Shown here piece by piece: positions 1,885 to 49,764 of a stretch of DNA of 64,000 nt. This stretch comes from a virus. A program made the position numbers and the translations under genes. Position 1 is the first letter of the stretch; each line of letters opens with the position of its first letter. Below the pieces are notes generated by a model. The model did no database searches and had not been told where the DNA came from. It saw nothing but the letters and a program-made list of their open reading frames with translations. The stretch lies in IMG/VR virus record IMGVR_UViG_3300022562_000354, positions 1-64,000 of that record; one strand, given 5' to 3'.

Positions 1885-2396
1885 CAGGTAGGCTCCGGAA
1901 ACCCAACCAAGACAGATATAAGGCCAAAGATGGCCTTTTGCTTGGCTTCTTTGATAGACGGGGCTTGGACCACCCCTAGCTCGATATCGCGGAACTTCAC
2001 CTTCACTCGGAAGGTGGGCGCGGTTACCGGCCCTATCCTCTTCGTGTCGTGGACCGGGGGCTCCCAGCGGTTTACCTTCACAGCCAAGTTGAAGACGGTC
2101 ACTACGTCTTCGAGCCTCCCCCTCAGATGCCCAAGACACGCCTCTTGAATCGGCGACCACCCGAGCGTCTTCTTCGCCTCGAAAAATACGGACGGGTAGC
2201 ACACAAGGGGGATGCGGTTGTCGCGGAGCCGGTTGAGGAATGCCGTTTCGATCTCGGGCGGGACGTGGTTCTCGGACCGCGCCCACACCTTGATCACCTT
2301 CTCGAAATCCTTGGCATTTAGCCCTTCGAGGCGACGGCTATCCAGCGTGGCTTGAATCCGGCCCTCCGACTTGGGTTCTTTGTCTCGTTGGGCCAT
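1881..2396 (-). CDS. Protein with C-terminal double-stranded RNA-binding motif (dsRBD)
   Basis: PPVHDTKRIGPVTAPTFRVKVKF...VQAPSIKEAKQKA matches the dsRBD pattern GPxHxPxFxxxV...SKKxAEQxAA. CGGTGTA element 9 nt upstream. Confidence 0.65.
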   Translation of the reverse strand: MAQRDKEPKSEGRIQATLDSRRLEGLNAKDFEKVIKVWARSENHVPPEIETAFLNRLRDNRIPLVCYPSVFFEAKKTLGWSPIQEACLGHLRGRLEDVVTVFNLAVKVNRWEPPVHDTKRIGPVTAPTFRVKVKFRDIELGVVQAPSIKEAKQKAIFGLISVLVGFPEPTW

Positions 2397-2405
2397 GAGT
2401 TTAGT

Positions 2406-2412
2406 TACACCG
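2406..2412 (-). promoter_or_regulatory. CGGTGTA promoter-like element
   Basis: 9 nt before ATG 2396. Confidence 0.7.
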
Positions 2413-2455
2413 GGACCGCCTGAAATTCAGCGATCCCGGTGCCACCCTCCGTAGG

Positions 2456-4780
2456 CTAGAGCTTTTCCTCGATCTCTTTCATCTCGACCGTGCAGGCAAC
2501 CTTGGTGCCGTCCACGTCGATATCCAGCTTGTTCTCGTCGATTGACGAGAACTCCGAAAACCACGTCTGACCGACGACGAGGGAGAACGTCGTCTGAGCC
2601 ACGCGGTAGATGAGTCGGCGGCACTCCTCGGTGGCCGACTTCGCCTGACCCTTGAGCCAGGCTTCGAGGACTTGTTCCTTGGCCGCTGCCTTCGTGTAGG
2701 CGTCGGAAGCGAGGAACTTCTCCACCTCCTCGATGTACGGCTTCATGAGAGCCGTAGGCGGGTTGGGCTTGCCCGAAGCGATCTTGGCCTTGGCGTCCTT
2801 CAGGCTCGGGAGCGAAGAGTAGCCCTTGAGGCTCACCTTCAGTTGCTTCGCCATGTAGAAGTCCGTGGACTCGGCCACCGTCCCCTTCGGGTTGAATCCC
2901 GAGTAGTCCGTGAAGCCTTGGTCCTTGAGCCACGTGGCCGCCTCGTCCCCGTAGAGAGCCGCGAAGCCCTCCGACTTCTTCGCCGGGAGAAGCTCCTTGG
3001 CGAAGCCGTTGTAGACCTTCTGCGCTGCCTGAGCCTTCGTCAGCTCGAAGCTGAGCGTGAAGAACGTCTTGGCGCTCGTCTGCTTGACCATGTCCCGGTT
3101 GATGACCGGGAGGGCCTTCAGGTCGATCACGTAGTCGTAGTCCGCTCGGTAGTCTCCCGTGACGACACCCTCGGTCTTGAGGATCTTGAACGTCGCCTCG
3201 GAGAGTCGAACCGGGAGCTTCTCCACGTTCACGATGCCGTCCTTGATGACGGCGTAGTTGCGGAAGATGAACGTCTGGAGCTTCTCCGGGATCTTGCCCT
3301 TGTGTTCGGCCGGGAGCCGCGAGGAGAGGTCCACCGTTCCCGTCTTGCGGATCAAGATCGAGACGTTCGGACGGTCCTCGTTGAACGTCAGCGTGTTGAC
3401 CGGGTAACCCTCCGGCGACGGGTCCGCGATGAACTTGAGAGCCTCGCCCTTGTTGGCCGTGAGGGCGGACAGCTTCTCGTTCAGAGCCTTGATCTTCTTG
3501 ACGTCCTTCTCACCCGCCAGCTCGCTGGTGAGCTTCTCGAATTCCGCCTTCTCGTTGGCGTTCAGGTGCTCACTCGCATCGAGCTTGGCCCGACCGATGC
3601 GGTTGTACTTGAACTCCGAGTGGTCGAGGAGCACCTTGTTCCCCTCGTCTGCCTGGAGGAGATTCAAGAACTGGAGCACCGTGAAGGCGTCGTCACGCGG
3701 CACCTTCTTGGGGTCGTAGCCCTTGGTGAAGCGGGCCTTGGGATCGAACGCGGCCGTCTTGGCGGCGTCCATGAAAGCGCTGTACTTCTGCTTCCCGAAA
3801 CACCCGGAAAACTGCTCGATGAAGGTCACGTCCCCGAGCGCCTTGAGGAAAGGGAAGACGATCTCGGGCTTCATGCGAACCGAGAAGAGGCTCACCGCCG
3901 CGTAGGCTGCGTCGAAGTCATCCCCGGTCGTCCGAGAGCTGGCGGTTCCGTTGAGGTCACCCACCACGCTTCCGATGGGGGTCGGGGAGACGTAGTAGAG
4001 AACCGGGAGATCCTCCGGTACCGCTGCCGTACCCGCCGCTGCGAACGTGATGAGGTCGCCATCGTGGAGGGCGTAGGCGAAGCCTCCGACCGCATCCCCC
4101 TCGATCTTGACCTCGATCCGAGGGGCGCCGCTGATCTTCTTCTGCATGGCCGCCTCGAACTGAGGCGCGTACTTGTCGAACTGCTCGGCGAAGATGAAGT
4201 TACCGCCCGACTTCTCCGCCATCGCCGTGAGGAGCTGCCTGTCGGCGTAGTTGCCGTACTCGACGAACGTGGAGGAGGAGACGAACTTGGACGCCTTCTC
4301 GGCCGCCTTGAGCACGTCCGCCCGACTGGACTGGTTGTCCCAGCCGTCCGACATGAAGAACAAGGCGTTCGTGTTCTGGTTCTTCTTCGCGAGCTTCTTG
4401 GTGAGGTCTTCGATGCTCTCCAAGGGCTCCTTGAAGCCCGTGAGCCCCACGCACTTGAGCCAACGGTCGATCGCCGCATTGACATCGGAGAGGTCGGCCA
4501 GGGTCGCGACCGGCTCGCCTTCGAGGATGACGCCGTACTGACCCCGACCGGAGAACCACAAGAGGGAGAAGGTGTCCTTCTCTTTGAGGAGCTTCGGGAT
4601 TCGCTTCTTGAGCTGCTCCCGAATGTGGGGAAGCTCCGAGTACATCGACCCCGAACAGTCGATGACCGCGATGTGATTGGTGGGGACTTCTACGGGCTTC
4701 GCTGGCGCCGCTCCCTTAGCGACGGTCTGGCGAACGAGGTAGAGCTTGTCCGCGATCTTGTGCGACTGCGTTCCTGACAT
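2456..4780 (-). CDS. von Willebrand factor A (vWA) domain protein with a long C-terminal extension
   Basis: MIDAS motif VIDCSGSM, T in GLTGF, FFMSDG. Start at ATG 4780 follows an AAAGGA SD. Confidence 0.85.
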   Translation of the reverse strand: MSGTQSHKIADKLYLVRQTVAKGAAPAKPVEVPTNHIAVIDCSGSMYSELPHIREQLKKRIPKLLKEKDTFSLLWFSGRGQYGVILEGEPVATLADLSDVNAAIDRWLKCVGLTGFKEPLESIEDLTKKLAKKNQNTNALFFMSDGWDNQSSRADVLKAAEKASKFVSSSTFVEYGNYADRQLLTAMAEKSGGNFIFAEQFDKYAPQFEAAMQKKISGAPRIEVKIEGDAVGGFAYALHDGDLITFAAAGTAAVPEDLPVLYYVSPTPIGSVVGDLNGTASSRTTGDDFDAAYAAVSLFSVRMKPEIVFPFLKALGDVTFIEQFSGCFGKQKYSAFMDAAKTAAFDPKARFTKGYDPKKVPRDDAFTVLQFLNLLQADEGNKVLLDHSEFKYNRIGRAKLDASEHLNANEKAEFEKLTSELAGEKDVKKIKALNEKLSALTANKGEALKFIADPSPEGYPVNTLTFNEDRPNVSILIRKTGTVDLSSRLPAEHKGKIPEKLQTFIFRNYAVIKDGIVNVEKLPVRLSEATFKILKTEGVVTGDYRADYDYVIDLKALPVINRDMVKQTSAKTFFTLSFELTKAQAAQKVYNGFAKELLPAKKSEGFAALYGDEAATWLKDQGFTDYSGFNPKGTVAESTDFYMAKQLKVSLKGYSSLPSLKDAKAKIASGKPNPPTALMKPYIEEVEKFLASDAYTKAAAKEQVLEAWLKGQAKSATEECRRLIYRVAQTTFSLVVGQTWFSEFSSIDENKLDIDVDGTKVACTVEMKEIEEKL

Positions 4781-4811
4781 GGCCGGTCCTTTGTTGGGGT
4801 CCGGCCATGGG

Positions 4812-4818
4812 TACACCG
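4812..4818 (-). promoter_or_regulatory. CGGTGTA promoter-like element
   Basis: 31 nt before ATG 4780, with an SD in between. Confidence 0.65.
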
Positions 4819-4823
4819 ACGCT

Positions 4824-6194
4824 TTACCTGGGTAGAATCTCTACCCCGTGTGCAATTCCGACCTTGATTTTGTGGCGATCCCCGATCGTGAAATGTTGAA
4901 ACTCCGCATCTGACTTGGGTTCGTACTTGTAGGTATCCTTGTTGTAGGCAAGGGTCACCCGGTAATGTTCCGTACGGCCAGAGATGCGCTCTTGCTCACC
5001 TTGCCCTAATCCAACGCCCAAACGGATTTGTTCGTCGCTCGGCCAGTGGGTCTTCGTGCTCGTCCCGCTAGCCCGGACATCCCGGTTGTGGCCCCACTCC
5101 CAGACCTTCCAAGAGTACCAGTCTCGGTACCGGGGCTGGTCTTCGTAGTCGTCCACGGTGCGGTAGGCTGTCCGGTTGCAGTATTTGGGGGAACAGGACT
5201 TCGTGTCCGGGTTGCAGACTCGGTCCCCGCCCGTACAGGTCGCCGACCCGTTCTTGTTGCTCGTGCAACTTCGGGGCGTCGTGTAGCAGGAGCCTTTGAC
5301 GGTCGTACAGGTCTCCCCGCACTGGTACTGCTCCTGGTAGGACTCTTGGTGGCTCCCCACGCGAACATGGTCGTAGTGGTGAACCTTCCGGCCTTCGTCC
5401 ACTACGTCGAAGGCGCCAAGGTCCGGATCCCACCCCTCATGGCGGTAGACTTGGTAGCGCTCGACGGCCACACTCCGGTCCCAGGAGACCGCTGCGACTT
5501 GGGCGTCTATCACCTTCGTCCGGAAGATGAGATAGAGAGCTAGCCCTACCAGAATGGCCACCCCCGCTCCGATGAGAGTCCCACGGGAAGGGGTGTTGAA
5601 CCTCGGCACCCGAGGAGGCCGCATCATGTCCACCCTCCGGCTCACGTCGGCTGCGACGTCCGTGAACGAAGGGGGTGGAGTCACCTCTCGGTCGGGAGGA
5701 TCCCGGTACCCGCCCGTGTGCGGGACGAAAGGGGCCGGCTCCGGCCTCTGACGGGCTTGCTGCCGCTGCCTGAGCAACTCTTCGAGAGCTGGGTTGTGGG
5801 GGCGGTTCTTCCCCAACATCCTCTCGATGTCGTCTTTGGTCAGCTCCCCCCTGCACGCCTTGTCCTTGTCGGACATGTCCGTCTTGGGGTGAACGGCAGG
5901 CGTCTCGACCTTCTTGACCGAATCCCCCTGAGCCGACCCGCATTGAGCACAGTTGCCGTCCGCCCGGAACTGGGACGAGTCGCAGAAACGACACTTCCAG
6001 TCGGCCCCGGCCTTGAACTTGGCGAGCAACTCCGGGTCCTTGACCGCCGCCATCGGCGAGACGTCGTCCGGCATCCATTCGGGAGAGTCCTCCGAACGGG
6101 GTTTTCCGCAGTTCTGGCAGGTCTTGAAGCGACCCTTGTTGTCGGAGTTGCAGACAAGGCAACCCCAGAACATCTCGATGATGTCGGTCGGCAT
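4824..6194 (-). CDS. Double zinc-ribbon, single-TM membrane protein with a Cys-rich extracytoplasmic domain
   Basis: WGCLVC..CQNCG and WKCRFC..CAQCG; TM LIGAGVAILVGLALYLIF; an 8-Cys cluster after the TM. Confidence 0.7.
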   Translation of the reverse strand: MPTDIIEMFWGCLVCNSDNKGRFKTCQNCGKPRSEDSPEWMPDDVSPMAAVKDPELLAKFKAGADWKCRFCDSSQFRADGNCAQCGSAQGDSVKKVETPAVHPKTDMSDKDKACRGELTKDDIERMLGKNRPHNPALEELLRQRQQARQRPEPAPFVPHTGGYRDPPDREVTPPPSFTDVAADVSRRVDMMRPPRVPRFNTPSRGTLIGAGVAILVGLALYLIFRTKVIDAQVAAVSWDRSVAVERYQVYRHEGWDPDLGAFDVVDEGRKVHHYDHVRVGSHQESYQEQYQCGETCTTVKGSCYTTPRSCTSNKNGSATCTGGDRVCNPDTKSCSPKYCNRTAYRTVDDYEDQPRYRDWYSWKVWEWGHNRDVRASGTSTKTHWPSDEQIRLGVGLGQGEQERISGRTEHYRVTLAYNKDTYKYEPKSDAEFQHFTIGDRHKIKVGIAHGVEILPR

Positions 6195-6208
6195 GTGTCT
6201 GAAAGAGA

Positions 6209-7480
6209 CTACACCGAGAGGGTTTTGAAGCGCTCGGCCACTCTCTCAGTCAACGTAGCCACCTTCACAGCTCCCGGTAGAGCTGTTTCGAGCCACATGC
6301 GGACCTTTTCGTGAACAACTCGTGGCCCGTAGGCAACGAGCATCCCGATCGTCTCGCAGAACGCCTCTTCTTGGTTCTTGTTGGCGTACCCCGTGATCGG
6401 GTGCTTGGGGACTCGAATCTTCCGATCCCCCTGGTCGTAGAGCTTTTGAAACTCCTCTTTCTTCTGAAGCTCCCCGTAAGCGCGGTCGTAGCTGATCGCT
6501 TCGACCTGAAGGGCGAGGATGGGGTTCGTGTCCTTGAGCTTCGACGGAAACTCAAAGGCCCATGCGTCCCCAGGCCAGTTGTCGAGCAGCTCCTTGAGGT
6601 CGAGGTCGCCGTAGTCCCCTCGGATCGTCATCTGCCAAAAGTCCTGAGCCTCTTTACTCAAGTACGTTTTCCACAGGTGGTGCCCCATCTCGTGAGCGAG
6701 CGCGTGGACAACCCAATCGACGCCCTTGCTGCTCATCGAGGTCAGGTAGAAGTACACGACCCCGTTCTTGTACTCCCCACCCTGGTCTAGCTTCCCGTTG
6801 AAATGGGCAACGATGGGGCACTGCTTGCGGAGGAGAATGGGCGCAACGGCTGCCGCCCGTTGGCGGTATCGCTTCAGACCCTCTCGGAACATCGCGAGCC
6901 AGTCCGGGTGGTGATCGTCATCCGGCTCGTACCCTTGAACTTCAACCTTGAACCCCTCGATGACCGTGTTCTCGATGACCGGCATCTTCACGTCGAGGGT
7001 CTTTTTCTTCCACTCGGCAAACTCGACGATGACCTCTTTCATCTCCTTCCAGAAGACTTGAGCCTTCCGTTGGACGCGAGCCTTCCACTTGGGGGCTTCT
7101 TGCTCGAACTGCCTGAACTTTGCCTCTTCGCTGTAGTATTCGTCAGCGAAGCCGATGGGAGGTGACAGCTCGATCGAGAAGTCCCACGCCTTGGACCGGA
7201 GCCGCTTGTCGTAATACTTCGCGTCCCCCTCGGGGAGCCCCAACTCGTACTTCAAGTCGTGGTTGAGGAAGTGCTCGAAGAAGAGGTCGTTGAAGTTCTC
7301 GCGGTAGATGCGGAAGGCGTCCCTTAGCTCGTGGGCCGTCTTGTAGTCCTTCACCCTGGGGAGGTTCTTCCCAAGCGTGAGGAAGTCCTTTCGGAGCCCC
7401 TCAACCCACGCGAGGTCCAGCCGCCTCATGTTGGCGGCGTACCTGGCGACAACGGAAGGAACGAGCGGGTCCATACTCAC
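6209..7480 (-). CDS. Tagged zincin metallopeptidase (HExxH, anthrax-LF/MPTase-like), probable virion protein
   Basis: LAHEMGH...GYANKNQEEAFCET; N-terminal MDPLVPSVVARY and C-terminal KVATLTERVAERF tags. Confidence 0.7.
   Translation of the reverse strand: MSMDPLVPSVVARYAANMRRLDLAWVEGLRKDFLTLGKNLPRVKDYKTAHELRDAFRIYRENFNDLFFEHFLNHDLKYELGLPEGDAKYYDKRLRSKAWDFSIELSPPIGFADEYYSEEAKFRQFEQEAPKWKARVQRKAQVFWKEMKEVIVEFAEWKKKTLDVKMPVIENTVIEGFKVEVQGYEPDDDHHPDWLAMFREGLKRYRQRAAAVAPILLRKQCPIVAHFNGKLDQGGEYKNGVVYFYLTSMSSKGVDWVVHALAHEMGHHLWKTYLSKEAQDFWQMTIRGDYGDLDLKELLDNWPGDAWAFEFPSKLKDTNPILALQVEAISYDRAYGELQKKEEFQKLYDQGDRKIRVPKHPITGYANKNQEEAFCETIGMLVAYGPRVVHEKVRMWLETALPGAVKVATLTERVAERFKTLSV
6210..6216 (-). promoter_or_regulatory. 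CGGTGTA promoter-like element
   Basis: 15 nt before ATG 6194. Confidence 0.65.
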
Positions 7481-7734: not shown

Positions 7735-7747
7735 ACCGAGCCGACCG

Positions 7748-7757
7748 TATCGAAAGA
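7748..7757 (-). promoter_or_regulatory. Putative late promoter TCTTTCGATA
   Basis: Upstream of the YDR and tagged-peptidase pair. Confidence 0.45.
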
Positions 7758-8586: not shown

Positions 8587-8601
8587 AGAGGATCCTCTCG
8601 G

Positions 8602-8871
8602 TCAAAGCCCTTGGGGCGGCTTGGCGTCAGGGCTCGGATCGGAGATTCGCTGGACTCCAAACGGCCCCATGTCGTTGAAGCGGCTGCCGCAGTTAGGGTT
8701 GGCGCACTTGAAATTCTGCGACCCACCCCCGCAAGGCCCGGCGAGAAAGCCTTGCTGTTTGCAGTCAGGGCACATGACCTCACTGAGTCTCGTGCCCCGT
8801 CGCATCCCAGCCATCTCTTCTTCAGTCAGGTTCTCGCCGTTACGGCTGCTCATCGGCCCGAGGGAGACCAT
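8602..8871 (-). CDS. Hypothetical zinc-ribbon protein
   Basis: CPDC..GPCGGGSQNFKCANPNCG; TGATG coupling at 8871. Confidence 0.55.
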   Translation of the reverse strand: MVSLGPMSSRNGENLTEEEMAGMRRGTRLSEVMCPDCKQQGFLAGPCGGGSQNFKCANPNCGSRFNDMGPFGVQRISDPSPDAKPPQGL

Positions 8872-9449
8872 CAGAGCCCCTCGACAACCGGACGGGCTGC
8901 GATGGCCTCGGAAAGCCACTTTCGGAGCTGTTCTTGCTCATCGCGAATCTCGATCAATTCAAGCAACGGCACGATGTACTGGTTCGTCTCGTTGATGACC
9001 CGAGCCCACCGCTTGTCCTTGAAGACCGTCCTGCCTTCACGGAGGTTGCAGATTCGGTCAGCGAGCTTCACCTTCGCTTCCGCAAACCTCAAGGTCTGAC
9101 GCAGGCGAGCGAGGTAGGCGATCTTGGAGTCCGCCGCCTCGTCATGTGTGAGGCTCACGACACCGAAGACGATGTTGTAGTCTATACCCTCGGCCGTGAG
9201 ATCCGCCTCGATCACCCGAGACCCATCTTCTTTCCGGCCGTCCTCGATGAGATCGTGCATCCATGCCACGTCGATGCAGTGCTCATACGTGGCCTTCTCT
9301 CGCTCGCTAGGGGGTGGCGGGTGTGTCAAGCCCCAAAGCTCCGTCAAGAGACGCACGAGGTCTTGCGGGTGTTCCCACGCCGCTCTGTTTCCCGGCCCTT
9401 GCCGGGTACCCGGCATCCAGCGCCGGGCTAGTTCTTCACTTTTTCTCAT
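8871..9449 (-). CDS. HD-domain (RelA/SpoT/Mesh1-like) phosphohydrolase
   Basis: EHP, AWMHDLIEDG, VSLT and VKLADRICNL motifs; start ATG 9449, 9 nt after CGGTGTA. Confidence 0.8.
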   Translation of the reverse strand: MRKSEELARRWMPGTRQGPGNRAAWEHPQDLVRLLTELWGLTHPPPPSEREKATYEHCIDVAWMHDLIEDGRKEDGSRVIEADLTAEGIDYNIVFGVVSLTHDEAADSKIAYLARLRQTLRFAEAKVKLADRICNLREGRTVFKDKRWARVINETNQYIVPLLELIEIRDEQEQLRKWLSEAIAARPVVEGL

Positions 9450-9458
9450 GCTCGGTTC

Positions 9459-9465
9459 TACACCG
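9459..9465 (-). promoter_or_regulatory. CGGTGTA promoter-like element
   Basis: 9 nt before ATG 9449. Confidence 0.7.
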
Positions 9466-9754
9466 AAACGTGGCGCCTTCAACCAGCTCCTACCTTTTCA
9501 CCCAATTCTGCGTAGAAAAATTTGTCGGCCGCTCGGGATCATGTATCTTGAGAGGCGACTCGGCACCCCCTTGTCTCCGACCTCGCAATTCCGCAGGCGG
9601 TGAATGCCGTTGGGTCTACATACAAGCGATCAAAAAGGAAACTGCATGCGCACACGCGATTCGCCGTAGTTCCGATTTGATGAAACCGCGACTCTGCTGT
9701 CCTTGTCGCACATGCGAATGTTGGCGGGGTTTACATCGTACAAGTAGCGGTTTT

Positions 9755-9787
9755 GAAACCCGAAGGATTCCAAGTCCTTCGGGTTTC
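9755..9787. terminator. 13-bp perfect hairpin in the divergent intergenic region
   Basis: GAAACCCGAAGGA-ttccaag-TCCTTCGGGTTTC; only a weak U-tract, so function is uncertain. Confidence 0.45.
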
Positions 9788-16631: not shown

Positions 16632-16638
16632 TACACCG
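16632..16638 (-). promoter_or_regulatory. CGGTGTA promoter-like element
   Basis: 9 nt before GTG 16622, just after a terminator. Confidence 0.65.
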
Positions 16639-16648
16639 TAAAGCACGA

Positions 16649-16676
16649 AAGGCGTTGGGCTTGCACCCAACGCCTT
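16649..16676 (-). terminator. Rho-independent terminator after the histone-like gene
   Basis: AAGGCGTTGGG/CCCAACGCCTT 11-bp stem followed by TCGTGCTTT on the minus strand. Confidence 0.65.
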
Positions 16677-16697
16677 CGCGCCGACCTACGGATCCGA

Positions 16698-17450: not shown

Positions 17451-17457
17451 TACACCC
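17451..17457 (-). promoter_or_regulatory. GGGTGTA variant element
   Basis: In the AT-rich gap upstream of the histone-like gene. Confidence 0.55.
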
Positions 17458-19984: not shown

Positions 19985-20024
19985 TACACCGAGACGGAGA
20001 GATTCAAGGGTTGGTGCCGGTGTA
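19985..20024. promoter_or_regulatory. Back-to-back divergent CGGTGTA elements
   Basis: Minus copy at 19985-19991 is 9 nt before GTG 19975; plus copy at 20018-20024 is 9 nt before ATG 20034. Confidence 0.75.
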
Positions 20025-28568: not shown

Positions 28569-29744
28569 CTACACCGAGGCCAACGCCTCCCGTACGAGTT
28601 TTTGCAGGTGTTCAGGCAATTCGGGGCGTGTTGGCTCGTCACGTCCCACCATGAGGTTCTCGAAGCGCTCTTGCACCGCTCCGTCCCAAGAGCCCTTGAT
28701 TTTGAAGTGCCCGAGAGCAAACAACTCCGCGAAAGCCTCGCCTTCCTTGCGACTGTAAGGTGAGGTCCACCAGCGGGACTTGTCGAAGTCGTCGGGAAGA
28801 TTGTGCTTTCTCTCGTAACGGTGACCTAGCTCATGCACAAGGATGTAGTCGAGGGCGCCGTAGGACCCGTGGGTGCGCTTCAAGACTTTGGGGGTCGCCC
28901 GCACCATGAGCACGTCACCCGAGGACTTGTACTTGCCCCCTGCGGTACCTTGGAAGTCTCGTGGGCTCGCCAGGGCTACCTTGAGACCCCCCGATAGGGC
29001 CTTCCGGCGCCACCCTTTCAGGTCGTCCCAGATGGACTCCAGCGTGGTGACGTAGTGCCCGAGCTTTTTCTGGTCGAAGCCTACGAGGTTGAGGTAGGTG
29101 TTCCCGCCGACCGTCACCTCTTTGGGGACGATCTTCCCACCCTCGTTGGAGAAGTACCGGATCAGGTCGCCCGCCATAGGCTTGATGTCCTGCTCCCAGG
29201 CGCGTTTGGCCGCCCCCTCGCTGGCGGGGTTGCGGAAGGATTCCCCCTGGTAGTTCTTCTTGGTCCCCGCATCTTGCAGGAACCACCAAAGGGAATGCGC
29301 CTTGTTTTTCAGGTCCTTCTGGCCTTGAGGTGTCTTCGGGGAGTCGAAGCGGAAGGTATCCTTGAACCACTCGGCGATCTCGGCAGCCTCATCCGGGTCG
29401 AAGTGGGCGAACAGGCCGTCTATCTTCCGCATAAGCTCGTCGAGCAAGCTCGCTGAGAACATGAACCGAGCCGCCACCCGGCGAGCCATCCGGTCCTGGT
29501 AGAAAAAGGCGACCCGTTCTTCTATCGAGGCCCCGGACTTCTCGATCTTCTCCAACTTGTCGTAGTAATTGGGGTCTTCAGTCAGATGGTCGTACGCTAT
29601 CTCCCGAGCGATCTGAGGATCGTCGGTATGCTCCATCTCGACGCGAACCCCCTTCGCGACCTGAGCGGGGTCTACCCCTTCGGGTGGTCCCTTGTCCGCC
29701 AATCCGCCTGGGATTTTGTCTTCGAGTGAGGTGGGGAACATCAA
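28569..29744 (-). CDS. DUF5661-like N-terminal domain, tag and zincin metallopeptidase
   Basis: GVRVEMEHTDDP..AREIAYDHLTEDPNYYDKL; ASIEERVA..RMARRVAARF; LVHELGH...SPYSRKEGEAFAE. Confidence 0.7.
   Translation of the reverse strand: MMFPTSLEDKIPGGLADKGPPEGVDPAQVAKGVRVEMEHTDDPQIAREIAYDHLTEDPNYYDKLEKIEKSGASIEERVAFFYQDRMARRVAARFMFSASLLDELMRKIDGLFAHFDPDEAAEIAEWFKDTFRFDSPKTPQGQKDLKNKAHSLWWFLQDAGTKKNYQGESFRNPASEGAAKRAWEQDIKPMAGDLIRYFSNEGGKIVPKEVTVGGNTYLNLVGFDQKKLGHYVTTLESIWDDLKGWRRKALSGGLKVALASPRDFQGTAGGKYKSSGDVLMVRATPKVLKRTHGSYGALDYILVHELGHRYERKHNLPDDFDKSRWWTSPYSRKEGEAFAELFALGHFKIKGSWDGAVQERFENLMVGRDEPTRPELPEHLQKLVREALASV
28570..28576 (-). promoter_or_regulatory. CGGTGTA promoter-like element
   Basis: 10 nt before the clpX ATG. 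Confidence 0.7.
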
Positions 29745-33073: not shown

Positions 33074-33253
33074 CTACACCGTTCTGTAGTTTTTCTGGAA
33101 GTTTCCTGCGTAGGATGGCGTCAGCTTGTGACACGGGACGCATAGAGTCCGCCCGTTTGCGATGTCCCACAGCGCTTCACAACGATAGGCGTCTTCGAGG
33201 GTTTGGATGTTGTGCTCCTTGAGCAGTAGGGCAAACGGCCTGAGATGGTCGGC
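33074..33253 (-). pseudogene. Headless HNH endonuclease remnant immediately after thyA
   Basis: Manual translation ADHLRPF...LWDIANGRTLCVPCHK...; an in-frame TGA lies 5 codons upstream and there is no start codon. Confidence 0.7.
33075..33081 (-). promoter_or_regulatory. CGGTGTA promoter-like element
   Basis: 10 nt before the HU ATG. Confidence 0.7.
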
Positions 33254-34107: not shown

Positions 34108-34114
34108 TACACCC
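34108..34114 (-). promoter_or_regulatory. GGGTGTA variant element
   Basis: 21 nt before the thyA TTG, with GGAGAGG SD in between. Confidence 0.6.
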
Positions 34115-35426: not shown

Positions 35427-35713
35427 CCCAGGTCTACACCGTACTTGGCGATGACCTCTTTCAGCGAGGGCGGGTCGTCATCCTCGTCATCGTCATCGGC
35501 GTTCTGGAGTACCCGAGACATACGGTCGGTTCCCGTCTTCCACCCGTCGATGGCCGTGTGGACCGCCGCCGTGACCTGATCTTGCTCGGCTTCCGTACGA
35601 GCACGAGCGTACATGAGGCGAAAGGTCTCGACTTGCTCCGAGGTCAGCTCTTTAGCTAGTCCTCGTGCCCGTAGCGCCATGGTGAGTGAGTTTTTGCGCT
35701 GACGAAGACCCAT
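35399..35713 (-). CDS. Hypothetical protein
   Basis: CGGTGTA 10 nt upstream; acidic stretch. Confidence 0.55.
   Translation of the reverse strand: MGLRQRKNSLTMALRARGLAKELTSEQVETFRLMYARARTEAEQDQVTAAVHTAIDGWKTGTDRMSRVLQNADDDDEDDDPPSLKEVIAKYGVDLGCSKVKSSS
35435..35441 (-). promoter_or_regulatory. CGGTGTA promoter-like element
   Basis: 8 nt before ATG 35426. Confidence 0.65.
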
Positions 35714-35723: not shown

Positions 35724-35730
35724 TACACCG
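35724..35730 (-). promoter_or_regulatory. CGGTGTA promoter-like element
   Basis: 10 nt before ATG 35713. Confidence 0.7.
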
Positions 35731-39416: not shown

Positions 39417-39423
39417 TACACCG
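39417..39423 (-). promoter_or_regulatory. CGGTGTA promoter-like element
   Basis: 23 nt before the AAA ATG, with GGAG in between; follows a terminator. Confidence 0.7.
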
Positions 39424-39435
39424 CTAGAAAGGCAA

Positions 39436-39468
39436 GAGGCCCACCCTTTTCAAAAAAGGGCGGGCCTC
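39436..39468 (-). terminator. Hairpin terminator between DUF1257 and the AAA gene
   Basis: GAGGCCCGCCCTTTT/AAAAGGGTGGGCCTC followed by TTGCCTTT. Confidence 0.6.
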
Positions 39469-40064: not shown

Positions 40065-40733
40065 TCACTCTACACCGTTTCCACCTAGACGAACAGTAGC
40101 GCCACGTTTTACTACGACAACGCCTTGTTCTGTTTTTCGAGGCGGCTCGGGAGCGGCCCATGGGTCTTTGGGTGCCGTAGCGGGTTTTCCCGGCAACATT
40201 CGCCCACTTTGCTTGGGGGTGTTCATCTGAAGCAAGTCTGGGGACAACTTCGTCGTCGTAGCTTTCACCATAGGTTTGGTTGAAGCGGCGACGGGTTGTG
40301 GAGCCGGCTCGGGTGATTCTGGTACCTTGAGGGGCTCCTCGGGGATGGGAACAGGGGCGGGTTCCGTCTCCGGGATGGGCTCTTCCTCCTCTACGGCGGG
40401 GGGAGGCTCGCTATCTTGCGGCACCGGGTCCGGTTCTGCAAGGTCTCTTGGGTCCAACCATGCCGAGGGCGTCCCGATCGCCTGGACTGGAGGGTTGAAC
40501 ATCTTGAACTGTTTGGCTTGAATCTCACGGATCCTCGGGTCCGTAGGGTCCATTCTAGGTACCTTCGAGAAGAGGCGCTCCTCCCAGGTGGCGACCCGTT
40601 GGTCGAACTTGGTGGTACCATGCGCAGATCGGGTGCATTCCGGTTGAACGCAGCGAACGCAGAACGCCAACCGGAAGTCCTCAACCGGGACCTGTTGGTC
40701 GTTACATTCGCGGAGATAGTCCAGCCGTCGCAT
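40065..40733 (-). CDS. Hypothetical protein (Cys cluster and Pro/Glu-rich tail)
   Basis: ECN...FCVRCVQPEC. Confidence 0.6.
   Translation of the reverse strand: MRRLDYLRECNDQQVPVEDFRLAFCVRCVQPECTRSAHGTTKFDQRVATWEERLFSKVPRMDPTDPRIREIQAKQFKMFNPPVQAIGTPSAWLDPRDLAEPDPVPQDSEPPPAVEEEEPIPETEPAPVPIPEEPLKVPESPEPAPQPVAASTKPMVKATTTKLSPDLLQMNTPKQSGRMLPGKPATAPKDPWAAPEPPRKTEQGVVVVKRGATVRLGGNGVE
40071..40077 (-). promoter_or_regulatory. CGGTGTA promoter-like element
   Basis: 33 nt before ATG 40037, with an SD in between. Confidence 0.65.
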
Positions 40734-43848: not shown

Positions 43849-44269
43849 CGACCACCACGACTGTATACACCCCCTCACGCCAGAACTTGACCAGCTCCGC
43901 GATGAGCCGACGAGCATTGGGGTCTTCAATCCCAGATGGCTCGAAGCACCAAGGCATCTTGGAGTGCAGAGGTACGCACTCTTTCGGCCGATAGAAAGGA
44001 CATGGATCCCGCCGCTCGCACACCCGGTTGCCCACAGGGAGCTTCCGGAGGGCTCCCTCGGGTGGGATGCCGAGCGCCTTCACCAAGGGGGAGGACCAGC
44101 CGGCGAGAGCGTGGTCCATCACCGCCTTGTCTACGACCGTAAGCAGGTTGGTTGCCTCCAACCCCTGAGCCGGTACCCACGTCTCTTCCCAACGTTGGCC
44201 GTACTGATAGATGAGGTACAGCTCAAGGTCCCCCATCTCCGCCGTCTTGACCTTGAGTCGTCTAGGCAC
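43835..44269 (-). CDS. Hypothetical Cys-rich protein
   Basis: CERRDPCPFY..EC...PWCF. Confidence 0.6.
   Translation of the reverse strand: MPRRLKVKTAEMGDLELYLIYQYGQRWEETWVPAQGLEATNLLTVVDKAVMDHALAGWSSPLVKALGIPPEGALRKLPVGNRVCERRDPCPFYRPKECVPLHSKMPWCFEPSGIEDPNARRLIAELVKFWREGVYTVVVVDAEQ
43866..43872 (-). promoter_or_regulatory. GGGTGTA variant element
   Basis: 17 nt before the polA ATG at 43848. Confidence 0.55.
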
Positions 44270-44915: not shown

Positions 44916-45112
44916 AGCTCCTCCGACTCCTCAACCACGGGGCTCCGGATGATCCGGCACTCACACGTCTCGTAAAGCGTAGAACCCCAGAAGACCCGAG
45001 TGTGATTGTCGTGAGGGTAGCCGGGAACGAGGTCCCCTTGCTGATGGACGACCCTCATCCCCGTACCCCCGCAAACGAAGCACTGGGTAGAGAACGTACA
45101 AGGGAGGTTCAC
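44912..45112 (-). CDS. Small zinc-finger protein
   Basis: CFVCGGTG...CECR; GTGA overlap. Confidence 0.55.
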   Translation of the reverse strand: MNLPCTFSTQCFVCGGTGMRVVHQQGDLVPGYPHDNHTRVFWGSTLYETCECRIIRSPVVEESEEL

Positions 45113-46590
45113 CCGAACATCCCTTGTACGGCCTTGTCGATCGAAAAGACAGAGGTGCGGTGGTCGTCGAGGCTCATACCCTTGTCCGACGTGGCCCCCG
45201 TGAGCTGGTCGTGGTTGAAGATGCGTCTCGTCTTCCAATCAACACCGGCCACGAAGTGAGGGAAAAACGGGCCGTCACGACGCTTCAGGCAGTCGAACAG
45301 CGTGGTACCCGCCGTCCGGTGCTCATCATTGAGGTACGTGGTCGTAACCACGTCGGCAGAACGCTCGGCTTCGTTGGCGTAGCTGAGCGCTCGGAGCTTG
45401 TAGCGACCTTCGTTCTTGTCCGCGTAGTCCTTGCCGTCACGGTTGATCTGGAAGAGCAACAAGACGGGGACCTTCTCGCCGTGATTGAAGTGAAGGGCCA
45501 GCTTTTTGGAGTCTCGGAGGACCGAGTTCAATTCGATCGTGTAGTCCTTACCGCGCTTCTTCTTGCGGGGCTCGACGAGTCCGCCGTGGTCGATGACGAG
45601 GAGGTGAACCTCGTTCTTCTGGTGCGACAGCTCGGCCGCCATCTTGATGTCGTCGGTCGTGACATCGTCGTCCGGGCTCCACACGTCGAACGAGCCGTAC
45701 TCCGGGTTGTTCACGAAGTCGTCGATGACGAGCTGGTAGAACTTCTCCTCTTCGGGGGTGAGCGTACCGGCGCAAATCCGGTCGTATTCGAGCGACTCGT
45801 AACCGAGGAGCTTGAACCTCGGGTTAGACGAGTGCATGGCGTAGATCATTGCCCGCACTTGCTCGTACGGCATCTCCAAGGTCACGTAGAAGACGTTGGA
45901 GCGGTACCGGGTCACGAGGTTGTAGGCCCAGTTGAGAGCGAAGCTGGTCTTCAACTCTCCGGTGAAGGCAGCGTGAAGCCAAAGCTCACCACGCTTGATG
46001 CCCCGGAGAACCTTGTCGATGTTGTTGAGGCCGCAGAACTTTCCCCAAGCGAGGCCCTTGTTGGCCTTGGCCTCTTGGTAGTTGTCCCAGACCTCTTGCC
46101 CATCCTCACGGATGTTGCCTTGGATCCGAGCGTTGTGCTGGTAGACGAGGAGCTTGTGGGCGTTCTGCGAGAAGTGAAGAACGCCATCCCGAAGACCTTG
46201 CTTCTTCTCTTGGCCGATGACCAGTCCCTTGGAGATGATCTCCTGCGACTCTTTGAGGATGGTGATCGCCTTGACCCGGTTCTGCTCCTCGACCGTGGTA
46301 GAGATCAGGTGGGCGTAGTTCGTACGGATGTACGGCTTTTGCCCCTCGTAGTCCTTGATACGCTCGACGACCTCTTGATCCCGCTTGGCCTCGAAGAAGT
46401 CTGCGAGGGTCTGCCTAGCTGGGATCTCCAGGCGTTGATGGAAGTAGTTGAGGACGAAGTCGTAGACCCGCTGGTCAGCCGGCTGCGTCCACTCAACATG
46501 GGAAGCGACGAGCTTCTGGAAGTTGGCGACGAGGTTCTCCTGAGAGACCCCACCATCCATGTCGATGACGGACCGTAGGAGGCCCTTCAT
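45109..46590 (-). CDS. DnaB-like replicative helicase
   Basis: AAFTGELKTS (variant Walker A), VTLEM, LVIDH, FQINR, AERSADVV and KRRDGP motifs. Confidence 0.85.
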   Translation of the reverse strand: MKGLLRSVIDMDGGVSQENLVANFQKLVASHVEWTQPADQRVYDFVLNYFHQRLEIPARQTLADFFEAKRDQEVVERIKDYEGQKPYIRTNYAHLISTTVEEQNRVKAITILKESQEIISKGLVIGQEKKQGLRDGVLHFSQNAHKLLVYQHNARIQGNIREDGQEVWDNYQEAKANKGLAWGKFCGLNNIDKVLRGIKRGELWLHAAFTGELKTSFALNWAYNLVTRYRSNVFYVTLEMPYEQVRAMIYAMHSSNPRFKLLGYESLEYDRICAGTLTPEEEKFYQLVIDDFVNNPEYGSFDVWSPDDDVTTDDIKMAAELSHQKNEVHLLVIDHGGLVEPRKKKRGKDYTIELNSVLRDSKKLALHFNHGEKVPVLLLFQINRDGKDYADKNEGRYKLRALSYANEAERSADVVTTTYLNDEHRTAGTTLFDCLKRRDGPFFPHFVAGVDWKTRRIFNHDQLTGATSDKGMSLDDHRTSVFSIDKAVQGMFG

Positions 46591-47471
46591 ACTGGTCCGC
46601 CCCCCGACCGTCGCTTCTTGGGGTTGAACTTGGACCGCCCCCCGCCAAGCACGGGATCGAGAATTGGGTCCAGATCAACCTCCGGTTCAGGCTCCGGAGC
46701 CGCCCTCTTTGGGCGTTGCTTGGGTTCGGCTACAGCCACGGCCTTGGTGGTCTCGTCATCGACGGACAGCCCGACGTCATCGTCGGTAAGCCCTGGGCCG
46801 CCGCCTTCGATGGGGAAGACCTCAAAACGGTCACGGATGTAGTCGGCCACGTCCCGGCTCCACGTGTAGTGACCTTCCTCAAAGGGAGAATCGGGCTCCT
46901 CCACGAGCCACGTGGGTAGCCTCAACGCTTGCCGTACCATGAGGGCCTCTTTCAAGATGCCGCCCATGGCTTGGTTCTTCCACCCGAGGAACCCCAGCCG
47001 AATGATGGCGAGGGTGTGCATCGGGCCAATGAGGTCTTCGATCGTGTTGTAGGTGGCGATCTCATCCGCCCGTTGCTTCTTGCTGCGGGCTTGGTTCGAC
47101 TCCTTGCCGAACCAGACGTTGCGGAGCTTCTCGTCCGTCACGACCGTAAACGAGAAGCCCTCCAGACCCACCGTGTTGAACTTGCAGATGAACGTCCACT
47201 TGAAGTGGGAGAGTATGGCAGACCACCACCCCTTCAAGATGAGGTTGTTCTTCGTCCTGTCGATGACCGGGGGCTCCCCGTGCTCCACGGCCGGCTGGTA
47301 GAGCGGGCTCTCCTGTCCGAGCTTTGCCATGGCAATCTCAGGCCCCAGCCGAAGCACCACCCGCTTGTTGTAGACGCACACGCAGGACTGCATCCGGTCC
47401 GCCTCGACCTCGATGCGATGACCTAGCCCGTGGCAATGCGGGCAGTCGGGATCCGGTGTTACTGAAGCCAT
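46587..47471 (-). CDS. Degenerate DnaC/IstB-like helicase-loader protein
   Basis: CPHCHGLG..CVC N-terminus, NNLILKG, IIRLG and R....LPTWL; no Walker A; lies upstream of the helicase. Confidence 0.5.
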   Translation of the reverse strand: MASVTPDPDCPHCHGLGHRIEVEADRMQSCVCVYNKRVVLRLGPEIAMAKLGQESPLYQPAVEHGEPPVIDRTKNNLILKGWWSAILSHFKWTFICKFNTVGLEGFSFTVVTDEKLRNVWFGKESNQARSKKQRADEIATYNTIEDLIGPMHTLAIIRLGFLGWKNQAMGGILKEALMVRQALRLPTWLVEEPDSPFEEGHYTWSRDVADYIRDRFEVFPIEGGGPGLTDDDVGLSVDDETTKAVAVAEPKQRPKRAAPEPEPEVDLDPILDPVLGGGRSKFNPKKRRSGGGPV

Positions 47472-47482
47472 CCGGGAATGCT

Positions 47483-47489
47483 TACACCG
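47483..47489 (-). promoter_or_regulatory. CGGTGTA promoter-like element
   Basis: 11 nt before ATG 47471 (head of the replication operon). Confidence 0.7.
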
Positions 47490-47500
47490 ACACCAATTCC

Positions 47501-49213
47501 CTACTTTTCACGGAGCGCGAGAACAAGGTCCCGTAGCTCGCCTTCCCCACGGTCAAACTTGAGCGCCCCTACGGCCGCCTCTCCGATGACCTGGTCGATA
47601 AGCCCCTTCTTTTTCCTCAGTTTTTTCACGACCTTATGGTCGATAGTCTCGCGATCCTTACCCTTCTTACCGGGACGCTCTGCGATGAGGTGGATGGCGA
47701 GCACCTTCTGGTGAGGGCTGCCGATGCGGATCATGCGTCCGAGGAGCTGGACGTAGTTCCCCCAGGACCACGGGGAGTCGAAGAAGATCATCCCAACGGC
47801 CGCCTGGAGGTTGATGGCCTCGCTGCCGGCGTCGGTGATGAAGATGACCTTCACGTCGCTGTTGAGGTCTTGGAACTTGTCCTGAGCCTTCTTGCGGTCG
47901 GAGTCCTTGTTGATCTTCCCCGTGATGGCGACGCTCTTGATGCGCTCCGCCGTGAGGAGCTTCTGGAGCCTCCCTACGAGCTTCTCGAAGCGGGTGTAGA
48001 TGATGACCTTCTCGCCCTCAAACTCCTCTTTCAGAAGGTCGATGAGAGCCTGCTCCTTAGCGCTCTTGCCCTCGAAGTGCCCAACCCCGATGTCCCCCTC
48101 CTCGAACTTGAGGAGCCCGATCGAGTCGACGACCTCTTGCGTGTAGATGAGGCTCGTTAGCTCCTTCGTTTCCTTGTAGTCCCTCACGTCCCCGTCCCCA
48201 AATTCGAGGATGCCAGTGAGGGCCTCTTGGTACTTCTTGTCCTCCGCTGGGCTCAGCTCGCAAAGGACTTCGCGGGTCGTGAGGGAGGGTAGCTCGTCGC
48301 TAACCAAGTGCTTGGGTCTTCCGTAGAAGTAGGGGTCGATGGTCTCTCGAAAGTGGTTCAGGTTCTTGTACCCAACCACGATGGGGATCTTGGCGCCGCC
48401 CTTCACCCGCTGCATCTCGGTGACGCAGTAGACGTTGATGAAAGCGGTCTTGGACGAGAACGTACCCGGTCGGATGACTTGGTAGATTCCGAAGCCTTCC
48501 ATGAGGTTGTTCTTCAGGAGGGTCGCCGTCAGACCCCAACATCGGAACGAACGCTCCGAAAGAAACCTGCACGTCTGGTGCGTCTTCGTGCTCGGATTCT
48601 TGAAGGCGGTCGCCTCGTCGAAGATGGTGACGACCTTGGGGATCCGGTGAGTCAGAGCGTCCAGGTAGCCTCGGCCGGTCACCGCTTGCGTACCCGGCTT
48701 GGAGCCCGGCGCTGGGGGTGTCTTGGTGATGCCCTCGTCCCAGTCCTTGACCATCGAGTGGTAGTTCGTGATGAGGACCGAAGGACCCTCGCTCTTGAAC
48801 CATGCTTGGTAGGACTCTTTGCGTTGTTTTGGGGTGCCGGTCCCGATGTACGTCGTGATCCCGGTCGTGAACTTCTCGATCTCGCTGGCCCACTGGCGAA
48901 TGGCCGACTTGGGACAGACGACGATGACCTTGATCGAGGAGTCACGCTCCCAGAGATAGCAAAGGGCTCCGATGGCCTGGACGGTCTTGCCGAGTCCGGT
49001 GCCATCACCAAGGACCATCCGGTTGACCATGAGCAGGTGGAAAATCCCCTGGCACTGGTAGTACCGGAGCTTGAAAGGCTGCGGTGTCCCGTCGAGACCT
49101 ATGAACTCCTGACGAAACATCTTCGTCGGGTTCAAAGCCATGGTCTTGGAAGCTCGGACTTGCTTGAGCTGCTCGTAGACAGGGTTCGTTGTAACAGAGG
49201 CCGTCATGGTCAA
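47501..49213 (-). CDS. SNF2-family helicase/ATPase
   Basis: GDGTGLGKT, VCPKS, FDEAT, LTAT, AGSEAINLQ and QLLGRMIRIG motifs. Confidence 0.9.
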   Translation of the reverse strand: MTMTASVTTNPVYEQLKQVRASKTMALNPTKMFRQEFIGLDGTPQPFKLRYYQCQGIFHLLMVNRMVLGDGTGLGKTVQAIGALCYLWERDSSIKVIVVCPKSAIRQWASEIEKFTTGITTYIGTGTPKQRKESYQAWFKSEGPSVLITNYHSMVKDWDEGITKTPPAPGSKPGTQAVTGRGYLDALTHRIPKVVTIFDEATAFKNPSTKTHQTCRFLSERSFRCWGLTATLLKNNLMEGFGIYQVIRPGTFSSKTAFINVYCVTEMQRVKGGAKIPIVVGYKNLNHFRETIDPYFYGRPKHLVSDELPSLTTREVLCELSPAEDKKYQEALTGILEFGDGDVRDYKETKELTSLIYTQEVVDSIGLLKFEEGDIGVGHFEGKSAKEQALIDLLKEEFEGEKVIIYTRFEKLVGRLQKLLTAERIKSVAITGKINKDSDRKKAQDKFQDLNSDVKVIFITDAGSEAINLQAAVGMIFFDSPWSWGNYVQLLGRMIRIGSPHQKVLAIHLIAERPGKKGKDRETIDHKVVKKLRKKKGLIDQVIGEAAVGALKFDRGEGELRDLVLALREK

Positions 49214-49746
49214 TCCCTGGTCCGCCAGAGGTCCGCCGAGATAGGTGGAAGCCGCTCGCCAGCCGCAATGGCTTCAAGCCGCTCAGCCTCCATTCTAGCC
49301 TCTATCTCCTGCATTCGCCTCAAGTCCTCTTCCGTGGGCTCAGGCTCCGCGAAGCGTCGGTCCTCATCGGCGAGTACCCGCTTCACGTGGTCGATGAAGG
49401 CTTGAGGGGGCTTGACGTTGTGGGCCTCGATGTAGTGAACGAACCCTTGCGGCCAAATGAAAGCCGCATCCCCTTGGCACGTAGAACCGTTGTGGGTGCC
49501 GCAAATACGGCAAGATGACCAACCACGCCATTGAATGAGGTCCGGCTGGTTCTTGACGTAGGACAGCACGATGGCCTTTTCTTCGGGATCCCAAGACGGG
49601 TCCACGAAGTCCCTTGGATCTGGAAGAAAGTCGTACCTCTTGTCATGGTACGACCCTTCTGCGGATCTCCAGTAGCCGAGCGCTTGACGACCCTGAGCTT
49701 CGCGGGGAGTGTTGGGGTGAGCGACGAACATGGAGGGAAGAGACAT
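49210..49746 (-). CDS. Hypothetical protein (CRIC, WPQGFVHYIEAHNVKPP)
   Basis: CGGTGTA 11 nt upstream; conserved-looking Zn/His motif. Confidence 0.6.
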   Translation of the reverse strand: MSLPSMFVAHPNTPREAQGRQALGYWRSAEGSYHDKRYDFLPDPRDFVDPSWDPEEKAIVLSYVKNQPDLIQWRGWSSCRICGTHNGSTCQGDAAFIWPQGFVHYIEAHNVKPPQAFIDHVKRVLADEDRRFAEPEPTEEDLRRMQEIEARMEAERLEAIAAGERLPPISADLWRTRD

Positions 49747-49757
49747 CCCTCGCTTAC

Positions 49758-49764
49758 TACACCG
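49758..49764 (-). promoter_or_regulatory. CGGTGTA promoter-like element
   Basis: 11 nt before ATG 49746. Confidence 0.7.

Follow-up and report, generated by a model that had tools for sequence, protein, structure and literature searches.

The (C/T)GGTGTA box of huge uncultivated phages: a probable −10-only promoter element producing leaderless mRNAs

A seven-base box, CGGTGTA, recurs immediately upstream of gene starts in the DNA studied here, the first 64 kb (hereafter the window) of the 109,944-bp IMG/VR contig IMGVR_UViG_3300022562_000354 (G000). Judging from sequence comparison, we propose, with a probability of about 0.75, that this box is a −10-only promoter producing leaderless mRNAs. 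A whole clade of huge phages (approximately 0.3–0.5 Mb) would use a compact promoter in which (C/T)GGTGTA is the only specific sequence; lying in the −10 region, the box would position RNA polymerase alone, without a −35 box, and transcription would begin about 9–11 nt after its final A. For roughly half of the copies, the start codon (ATG, less often GTG) would lie exactly at the transcription start, leaving an mRNA leader of 0 or 1–2 nt. These closely spaced genes lack a Shine-Dalgarno (SD) sequence and would be translated as leaderless messages, while the remaining copies would give a short leader bearing an ordinary SD. As the reader of the box, we prefer a phage-encoded, strongly diverged sigma factor resembling the extracytoplasmic function (ECF) type and acting on the host core enzyme.

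Huge phages have been described almost exclusively from metagenomes, and how their hundreds of genes are transcribed is not known. The seven-base box provides an annotation rule for the clade, as it fixes gene starts, reveals small genes missed by gene callers and delimits operons, and the system can be tested without cultivating the phage. Should transcription indeed start at the start codon, the clade would make large-scale viral use of leaderless mRNAs, which would bear on phage expression that is independent of host translation-initiation signals.

Copies of the box in the window and in related phages

CGGTGTA is present in 17 copies in the window, versus 3.95 ± 1.99 in shuffled sequences, none of which reached 17 in 100 shuffles. 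Fifteen of these copies are on the coding strand and closely precede a gene start. Together with three copies of GGGTGTA they make up the 18 sites listed in an earlier note on this DNA, and every one of them was recovered at its position. Eleven copies are located 8–11 nt from the start codon, which is ATG in nine cases (2396, 9449, 20034, 28559, 33064, 35426, 35713, 47471 and 49746) and GTG in two (16622 and 19975). The distances from the motif to the first ATG are 8, 9, 9, 9, 10, 10, 10, 11 and 11 nt, and both GTG codons are in frame at 9 nt. When all 420 permutations of the heptamer were ranked by the number of copies with an ATG at 8–11 nt, CGGTGTA came first with nine; the runner-up had four and the mean was 0.49. 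The positional enrichment that the earlier note had set as a check on its proposal is thus present. None of 10 motif genes in the window has an SD, as compared with 52 of the 79 other genes (p = 7e-5), in line with the note's remark that the closely spaced copies mostly lack one.

CheckV puts the completeness of the contig at 23%, so that the whole genome would measure roughly 0.5 Mb, with about 370 kb of it missing. The window has a G+C content of 60%, nearly all of its genes are encoded on the minus strand, and the signal of G+C at third codon positions (GC3) is strong. A megablast search with 20 kb of the window gave no match in the annotated phage collection, and the nearest PolA found by tblastn belongs to an unannotated 485-kb uncultured phage and is 32% identical. 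Five IMG/VR relatives of 250–350 kb (G001 to G005) were identified. The identity to the window proteins is 70% for PolA in G001, 41–45% for PolA in G002, G003 and G004, and 62% for ClpX in G005. The full sequences of G001, G004 and G005 (250–320 kb) were compared; the phage records of the relatives cover 53–73% of their genomes. The host was not pinned down from ClpX, for which identities of 45–51% were spread over many phyla. Among the SD-led genes of the window, AAAGAGG, GAAAGAG and similar words are 3.4–4-fold over-represented on the coding strand, and this excess implies that the host has a canonical anti-SD.

The box is conserved far beyond the window. The heptamer is enriched relative to its reversed control in all five relatives (e.g., 81 versus 21 copies in G005 and 61 versus 16 in G004). 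In an unbiased hexamer test of the 80 nt upstream of self-called genes, GGTGTA ranked first in G000 (p = 3e-12), G001 (p = 6e-25), G004 (p = 3e-33) and G005 (p = 5e-40). The spacing between motif and ATG is sharp and specific to each phage, with 34 sites at 9 nt and 17 at 10 nt in G005, 19 at 10 nt and 24 at 11 nt in G004, and a peak at 8–10 nt in G001. Single substitutions at positions 2–7 abolish the association with gene starts, while position 1 follows the preference C>T>A>G. Across 117 sites in the four phages, all positions upstream of the motif stay at or below 0.12 bits and the spacer is unconserved; the earlier observation that the sites share no −35 element therefore extends to the relatives. 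An SD is present in 6 of 39, 4 of 21 and 9 of 42 motif genes in the three relatives, the other genes of the four phages having one in 64–70% of cases (p down to 5e-9).

At the level of individual genes, 12 of 13 G001 orthologues keep the motif and its layout, with diverged spacer sequences. The matching layouts include ClpX (10 nt), HU (11 nt), the NT5C-type nucleotidase (8 nt), the 23-nt SD-bearing leader of the AAA ATPase gene, the 17-nt gap of PolA and a divergent gene pair. Corrections of annotated starts to 20034 and 43848, proposed earlier on the strength of the motif, are backed by the G001 orthologues; the genes with proposed starts at 9449 and 16622 have no orthologue for comparison. 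The DUF1848 gene of G001 lacks a downstream ATG and can start only at a GTG at 9 nt, which speaks for GTG 19975 as the corresponding start in the window. The word GGGTGTA shows no enrichment in the window (6 versus 3.9); its upstream copies were judged real because the ThyA and PolA orthologues of G001 keep GGGTGTA in the same place.

The copies and the neighbouring signals in the window are as follows.

2406..2412, minus strand: CGGTGTA, 9 nt before ATG 2396; 171-aa dsRBD protein (1881-2396)
4812..4818, minus strand: CGGTGTA, 31 nt before ATG 4780 with AAAGGA between; VWA protein (2456-4780)
6210..6216, minus strand: CGGTGTA, 15 nt before ATG 6194; 456-aa protein
9459..9465, minus strand: CGGTGTA, 9 nt before ATG 9449; 192-aa protein, shortening the open reading frame (ORF) 8871-9482
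16632..16638, minus strand: CGGTGTA, 9 nt before GTG 16622; 113-aa protein; strong hairpin adjoining upstream
16641-16690, minus strand: hairpin between two genes, −35.7 kcal/mol, z −6.4; weak T-tail, fails the rule of the terminator scanner
17451..17457, minus strand: GGGTGTA, 24 nt before ATG 17426; 242-aa protein; CGGTGTA upstream of the G001 orthologue
19985..19991, minus strand: CGGTGTA, 9 nt before GTG 19975; DUF1848 protein; half of the divergent pair
20018..20024, plus strand: CGGTGTA, 9 nt before ATG 20034; 203-aa protein; second member of the divergent pair, kept in G001
28570..28576, minus strand: CGGTGTA, 10 nt before ATG 28559; ClpX; kept in G001 (10 nt) and G005 (TGGTGTA, 9 nt) with diverged spacer
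33075..33081, minus strand: CGGTGTA, 10 nt before ATG 33064; HU; TGGTGTA at 11 nt in G001
34108..34114, minus strand: GGGTGTA, 21 nt before TTG 34086 with GGAGAGG between; ThyA; same layout in G001
35435..35441, minus strand: CGGTGTA, 8 nt before ATG 35426; NT5C-type 5' nucleotidase; TGGTGTA at 8 nt in G001
35724..35730, minus strand: CGGTGTA, 10 nt before ATG 35713; 104-aa protein; CGGTGTA upstream of the G005 orthologue
39417..39423, minus strand: CGGTGTA, 23 nt before ATG 39393 with GGAG between; AAA ATPase; same 23-nt leader in G001
39426..39468, minus strand: intrinsic terminator with a 15-bp stem (39468-39436), the T-rich tail stopping 2 nt short of the motif at 39423
40071..40077, minus strand: CGGTGTA, 33 nt before ATG 40037 with AAGGAAAGG between; 59-aa protein; kept in G001, G004 and G005 at a longer distance
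43866..43872, minus strand: GGGTGTA, 17 nt before ATG 43848; PolA; identical layout in G001
47483..47489, minus strand: CGGTGTA, 11 nt before ATG 47471; 294-aa protein, followed by a DnaB-like helicase; kept in G001 and G005
49758..49764, minus strand: CGGTGTA, 11 nt before ATG 49746; DUF7919 protein, followed by an SNF2 helicase; kept in G001
56431..56437, minus strand: CGGTGTA, 96 nt before ATG 56334, within the 3' end of a 227-aa gene; 1521-aa tail-like protein

Pfam analysis of the genes downstream of the motif identified ClpX, HU, ThyA, PolA, DnaB-like and SNF2 helicases, NT5C, an AAA ATPase, and VWA, dsRBD and DUF1848 proteins. The labels clpX, HU, thyA, polA and helicase given earlier to the targets are therefore correct; MazG and HD proteins were not found among the motif-adjacent genes scanned. 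Most of the window copies precede replication and nucleotide-metabolism genes. The suggestion of an early or middle promoter class was not substantiated, as copies also stand in front of giant virion-region genes (99141 and 56431) and of a transfer-messenger RNA (tmRNA) gene in G005. The copy at contig position 99141 is followed by a 34-nt SD-bearing leader and a 2070-aa virion-region gene at 99106, and the 56431 copy, which was not in the earlier list, is a possible internal promoter. Another copy absent from that list, at 50121 on the plus strand, lies antisense within a gene and is probably due to chance. Beyond the window, only three further CGGTGTA copies were found in 46 kb, a region full of giant virion-type ORFs; the small number of copies in the structural half may reflect very long genes or operons.

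The giant ORFs (1521, 2421, 1804, 2070, 1164 and 1127 aa) occupy positions 51769-64000 of the window and the contig from 64 to 110 kb (loci L009-L012), and have almost no family matches. Pfam and PHROG searches returned only Baseplate_J for the 1164-aa protein and a weak tail-protein match for the 1521-aa protein. Other over-represented words of G000, namely GCGGTAA, TTGAAT and TCGCGAA, were rejected as candidate signals, as they are located in coding sequence and reflect codon usage.

A probable transcription signal at the start of the message

Several lines of evidence indicate that the box acts in transcription, and we regard a promoter function as highly probable. The copy at 39423 begins 2 nt past the T-tail of a terminator with a 15-bp stem, which leaves no room for another promoter, so the promoter that drives the AAA ATPase gene must coincide with the motif or overlap it. 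Two copies had earlier been placed directly after terminators. The assignment stands for 39417, with its stem and T-rich tail; the hairpin next to 16632 is strong, but its T-tail does not pass the scanner's rule. The back-to-back pair at 19985-20024 proved real and is conserved in G001, with 58 nt between the two start codons and the motifs 26 nt apart. A total of 42 copies lie 13–60 nt from the start, and the majority of these have their own SD in between, as expected if the motif sets the 5' end of a message whose gene may or may not abut it. The SD-like words described earlier for the longer-spaced copies of the window were likewise found in place. The tmRNA gene of G005 has TGGTGTA 20 nt ahead of the mature 5' end. 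Furthermore, five GGTGTA copies in G005 follow a CTGAAC −35 box at exactly 16 nt (from the end of the box to GTA), with 0.06 expected by chance. This is the register of 25 ECF-type CTGAAC/CGTAG promoters in the same phage, and the shared register from CTGAAC to GTA places GGTGTA in the −10 slot.

The same observations bear on the possibility that the motif is no promoter at all but a non-SD translation signal at −16 to −10 of the mRNA, bound by the ribosome or by a phage translation factor. Such a signal would explain the fixed distance to the start codon and the absence of an SD, and GGUG could pair with CACC of the 3' tail of 16S rRNA. However, the distance of 11–13 nt between GGUG and AUG is too long for 16S pairing, TA is kept no less strictly than GGTG, and an ordinary SD lies between motif and start at the copies spaced by 13–60 nt. 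A copy placed 2 nt past a terminator tail could not be transcribed from any upstream promoter, another precedes a tmRNA gene, and copies stand in register with a −35 box. We consider a translation signal very improbable. The view already taken in the earlier note, that the motif is a promoter element, is thus supported by the terminator placement, the SD-bearing copies, the tmRNA and the −10 slot.

Alternatively, the motif could serve a phage DNA-binding regulator as its operator and overlap unrelated promoters. A candidate exists in a protein of approximately 210 aa with Sigma70_r4 helix-turn-helix (HTH) domains, which is conserved in G001, G003, G004 and G005. However, the motif is asymmetric, occurs singly and always points towards the gene, and no further conserved promoter element was detected nearby. 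Nor would an operator need a distance to ATG that is constant to within 1 nt. This explanation seems hardly probable at all. The protein itself has no region 2 and is a possible transcription regulator; its gene adjoins that of a 5'-3' exonuclease.

G005 L029:14122-14757, minus strand: Sigma70_r4 protein of approximately 210 aa
G001 L042:1402-2028, minus strand: Sigma70_r4 protein of approximately 210 aa
G004 L052:1756-2400, plus strand: Sigma70_r4 protein of approximately 210 aa

The geometry of the closely spaced copies points to leaderless starts, as the earlier note had proposed. The TAnnnn hexamer that begins at the TA of the motif ends 5–7 nt before ATG. In Deinococcus, a TANNNT hexamer located 6–7 bp before the ORF was shown experimentally to be the −10 element of leaderless mRNAs (PMC12340547), and TA-like signals approximately 10–12 nt before the start codon are an accepted computational mark of leaderless genes (PMC3160421). 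The TA of the motif lies 8–11 nt before the start in 11 window genes, which fits this mark, as do the 117 sites of the four phages, and at the closely spaced copies an SD between motif and start is absent in the window and depleted in the relatives, as expected of leaderless genes. If +1 is the A of ATG, GGTGTA would occupy −15 to −10 at a spacing of 9 nt or −16 to −11 at a spacing of 10 nt. On these grounds, a transcription start at the start codon itself appears rather likely.

Among tRNA genes, the motif is directly upstream in only 4 of 141, at 20–34 nt, and is therefore rare. The relatives carry tRNA arrays of 39–55 genes, located at 62–88 kb in G005, 187–204 kb in G001 and 21–31 kb in G004 (loci L023-L024, L043-L044 and L050). 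In every relative, one or two of the tRNAs bear a CUA anticodon (tRNA-Pyl according to ARAGORN) and may be amber suppressors; one of those in G001 has CGGTGTA 25 nt upstream.

Candidate readers of the box

The earlier note had read the motif as part of an extended −10 element, and in its canonical form this reading failed. In TGnTATAAT, one base separates TG from TA, while in the box TG abuts TA directly; the lack of a −35 sequence is shared with such promoters. The TANNNT signature of primary sigma factors (A at position 2, T at position 6) is likewise incomplete. TA is invariant, and T at hexamer position 6 has a frequency of only 0.17–0.19 in G000, G001 and G005, in comparison to 0.48 in G004, so that three of the four phages lack it. 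An ECF-type −35 box at fixed spacing is generally absent from GGTGTA sites and was found only in a separate promoter class of G005 and G004 and in the five G005 hybrids.

The note had also suggested a phage sigma factor or RNA polymerase (RNAP) as the reader. A candidate sigma was found in the relatives; neither gene was found on the 110-kb contig, which was covered by Pfam searches and, for sigma, by a profile built from the family alignment (A1). The sigma-like protein (290–435 aa) is conserved in G001, G003, G004 and G005.

G005 L027:2005-2874, minus strand: sigma-like gene (protein P0001)
G001 L044:18448-19752, minus strand: sigma-like gene
L066 and L068: sigma-like genes

The N-terminus matches the first 37 of the 71 positions of Pfam Sigma70_r2, below the cut-off, and homologues are named sigma-24 family by the Joint Genome Institute (JGI), two of them carrying PF04542. 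In alignment A1, an HTH-like insert between regions 2.2 and 2.3 is followed by a region-2.4-like block, and the alignment suggests a putative C-terminal HTH. A model of P0001 with a predicted local distance difference test (pLDDT) score of 72 was compared with known structures by VIA, independently of Foldseek; the best matches were almost all sigma region-2 domains (Z 6.5–7.4 over approximately 80 residues), and the gp55 complex 7d7d was among the matches. The Foldseek search of the model against the PDB gave nothing significant, though sigma factors topped the list, and the A1 profile returned only noise from PDB sequences. No second sigma paralogue was found with the A1 profile. The sigma genes of G005 and G001 are both preceded by a perfect TTGACA box, and the G005 gene in addition by a promoter of the second class described below, which suggests a start from the host sigma followed by ECF-style autoregulation.

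The second class (class 2) is of ECF type. In G005 it consists of GGCTGAAC, a gap of 15–16 nt and (A/G)CGTAGTA with ATG 7–8 nt later, at approximately 30 sites (L025, L026 and L027, e.g., L027:9999-19200), and in G004 of TGAATC, 16 nt and GCGTAAGAG(G) with ATG 8 nt later, at approximately 13 sites (L054 and L061-L064). These promoters mostly precede clusters of small ORFs, and their genes would be leaderless too. No such second class was found on the contig of the window.

Whether a phage sigma of this family reads GGTGTA is, in our estimate, an even question. It is favoured by the phiEco32 precedent discussed below, by the G005 hybrids and by the lack of T at hexamer position 6. Several observations weigh against the proposed promoter or its reader. 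The missing T is one that primary sigmas need, and a canonical extended −10 would have TG one base further from TA. The box does not exactly fit any characterised sigma specificity. The candidate sigma is absent from the 110-kb contig and was not found in the G002 fragment, and its structural support is moderate (pLDDT 72, Z below 8, Foldseek not significant). The ECF-type class-2 promoter upstream of the G005 sigma gene points to a sigma that reads class 2. Class 2 varies among the phages, in contrast to the invariant GGTGTA, and the two have unlike base preferences 3' of GTA; both features fit a different, more conserved reader of GGTGTA. As no co-variation 3' of GTA was seen between the two promoter classes, nothing there ties GGTGTA to the phage sigma, and class 2 is the safer target of the sigma-like protein. 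As for the start codons, 16% of those at the fixed offset are GTG, a codon less suited to leaderless translation in systems of the E. coli type. It is doubtful, though conceivable, that one diverged sigma with an HTH-like insert in region 2 reads both the −35-dependent class and GGTGTA, with leaderless starts bypassing the host promoter and ribosome-binding-site rules for approximately 1 gene in 8 to 1 in 3.

The more conserved reader could be the host holoenzyme with its primary sigma, which would recognise GGTGTA as a −35-independent, extended-−10-like element, perhaps with a small phage protein that disables −35 recognition, as gp39 of P23-45 does. GGTGTA is invariant among phages whose PolA is only 41–70% identical, as would be expected for a conserved host enzyme; about half of the G004 sites do have T at hexamer position 6; and the G005 sigma gene is itself preceded by class 2, so the phage sigma may serve class 2 only. 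In line with this, the middle and late promoters of P23-45 are −35-less and read by the host sigma A (PMC3950348). On the other hand, position 6 lacks T in G000, G001 and G005, TG abuts TA instead of forming TGnTA, and the host-type signals upstream of the sigma genes are canonical TTGACA, unlike GGTGTA. Moreover, the ClpX similarity is spread over many phyla and points to no single host. Recognition by the host holoenzyme thus appears rather unlikely.

An unrecognised phage RNAP, either a virion-packaged giant protein or split beta/beta' subunits as in phiKZ/AR9 or crAss-like phages, is the other conceivable reader. Such enzymes typically use short promoters that consist of a single element and lack a −35, and the AR9 polymerase reportedly uses a promoter of this kind. 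Several giant ORFs of the contig (1521–2421 aa) have no Pfam or PHROG match, and about three quarters of the genome are missing. Against this, PF00940, PF00562 and PF00623 gave no match in five phage records covering 53–73% of the genomes, in searches with positive multisubunit controls and, for the T7-like type, no positive control. The RNAP-type catalytic motif D[FY]DGD was present in no ORF longer than 300 aa, the scan returning one irrelevant acidic stretch, and GGTGTA stands in register with a sigma-type −35 box in G005. We regard a phage RNAP as improbable.

Comparison with known systems

A full-text literature search for the heptamer returned only unrelated papers and no description of the box. 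Promoters that depend on a −10 region alone are known from other phages. T4 late promoters (TATAAATA) are −10-only and are read by gp55, a minimal and highly diverged phage sigma. T4 late transcription requires gp33 and the sliding clamp, and the late mRNAs have SD-bearing leaders. The likeness to the box is in the −10-only architecture, the T4 sequence being different and AT-rich.

The phage sigma that we favour has a closer precedent in phiEco32, the middle and late promoters of which consist of a single AATGTA centred at −11.5 and read by the phage sigma gp36 (PMC12276001). As in the present phages, there is one −10-region hexamer, sharing TGTA, and no −35 (PMC12276001). phiEco32 gp36 is a distant sigma homologue working on the host core RNAP; the relatives studied here also encode a distant sigma homologue, whose link to GGTGTA is only proposed. 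The two systems differ in the first two bases of the hexamer (AA versus GG), and phiEco32 is a coliphage of 77 kb. Of the copies described here, about half lie 9–11 nt from ATG, and we know of no report of phiEco32 promoters abutting start codons.

P23-45, a Thermus phage, likewise has a promoter class that functions without a −35 (PMC3950348). Its gp39 disables −35-dependent initiation and thereby favours the extended −10 middle and late promoters (PMC3950348). These are, however, canonical TG-n-TATAAT promoters used by the host sigma A, whereas GGTGTA has TG abutting TA and no TATAAT-like hexamer.

For the start of the message, the nearest parallel is found in the TA-led genes of Deinococcus-Thermus and Actinobacteria, in which the −10 element ends 5–7 nt before the start and an SD is absent (PMC12340547, PMC3160421, PMC4007540). 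In those bacteria, too, SD-led genes coexist with the leaderless ones, and the element can be used to correct annotated starts. The bacterial element is TANNNT, read by the host primary sigma; in the present case the information lies 5' of TA (CGGTG), position 6 has no T, and the genomes are those of phages. Both principles, the single-element promoter and the leaderless start adjacent to the −10 element, are therefore already known. What is new here is the box itself, its setting in huge uncultivated phages, and the combination of the two principles on a large scale.

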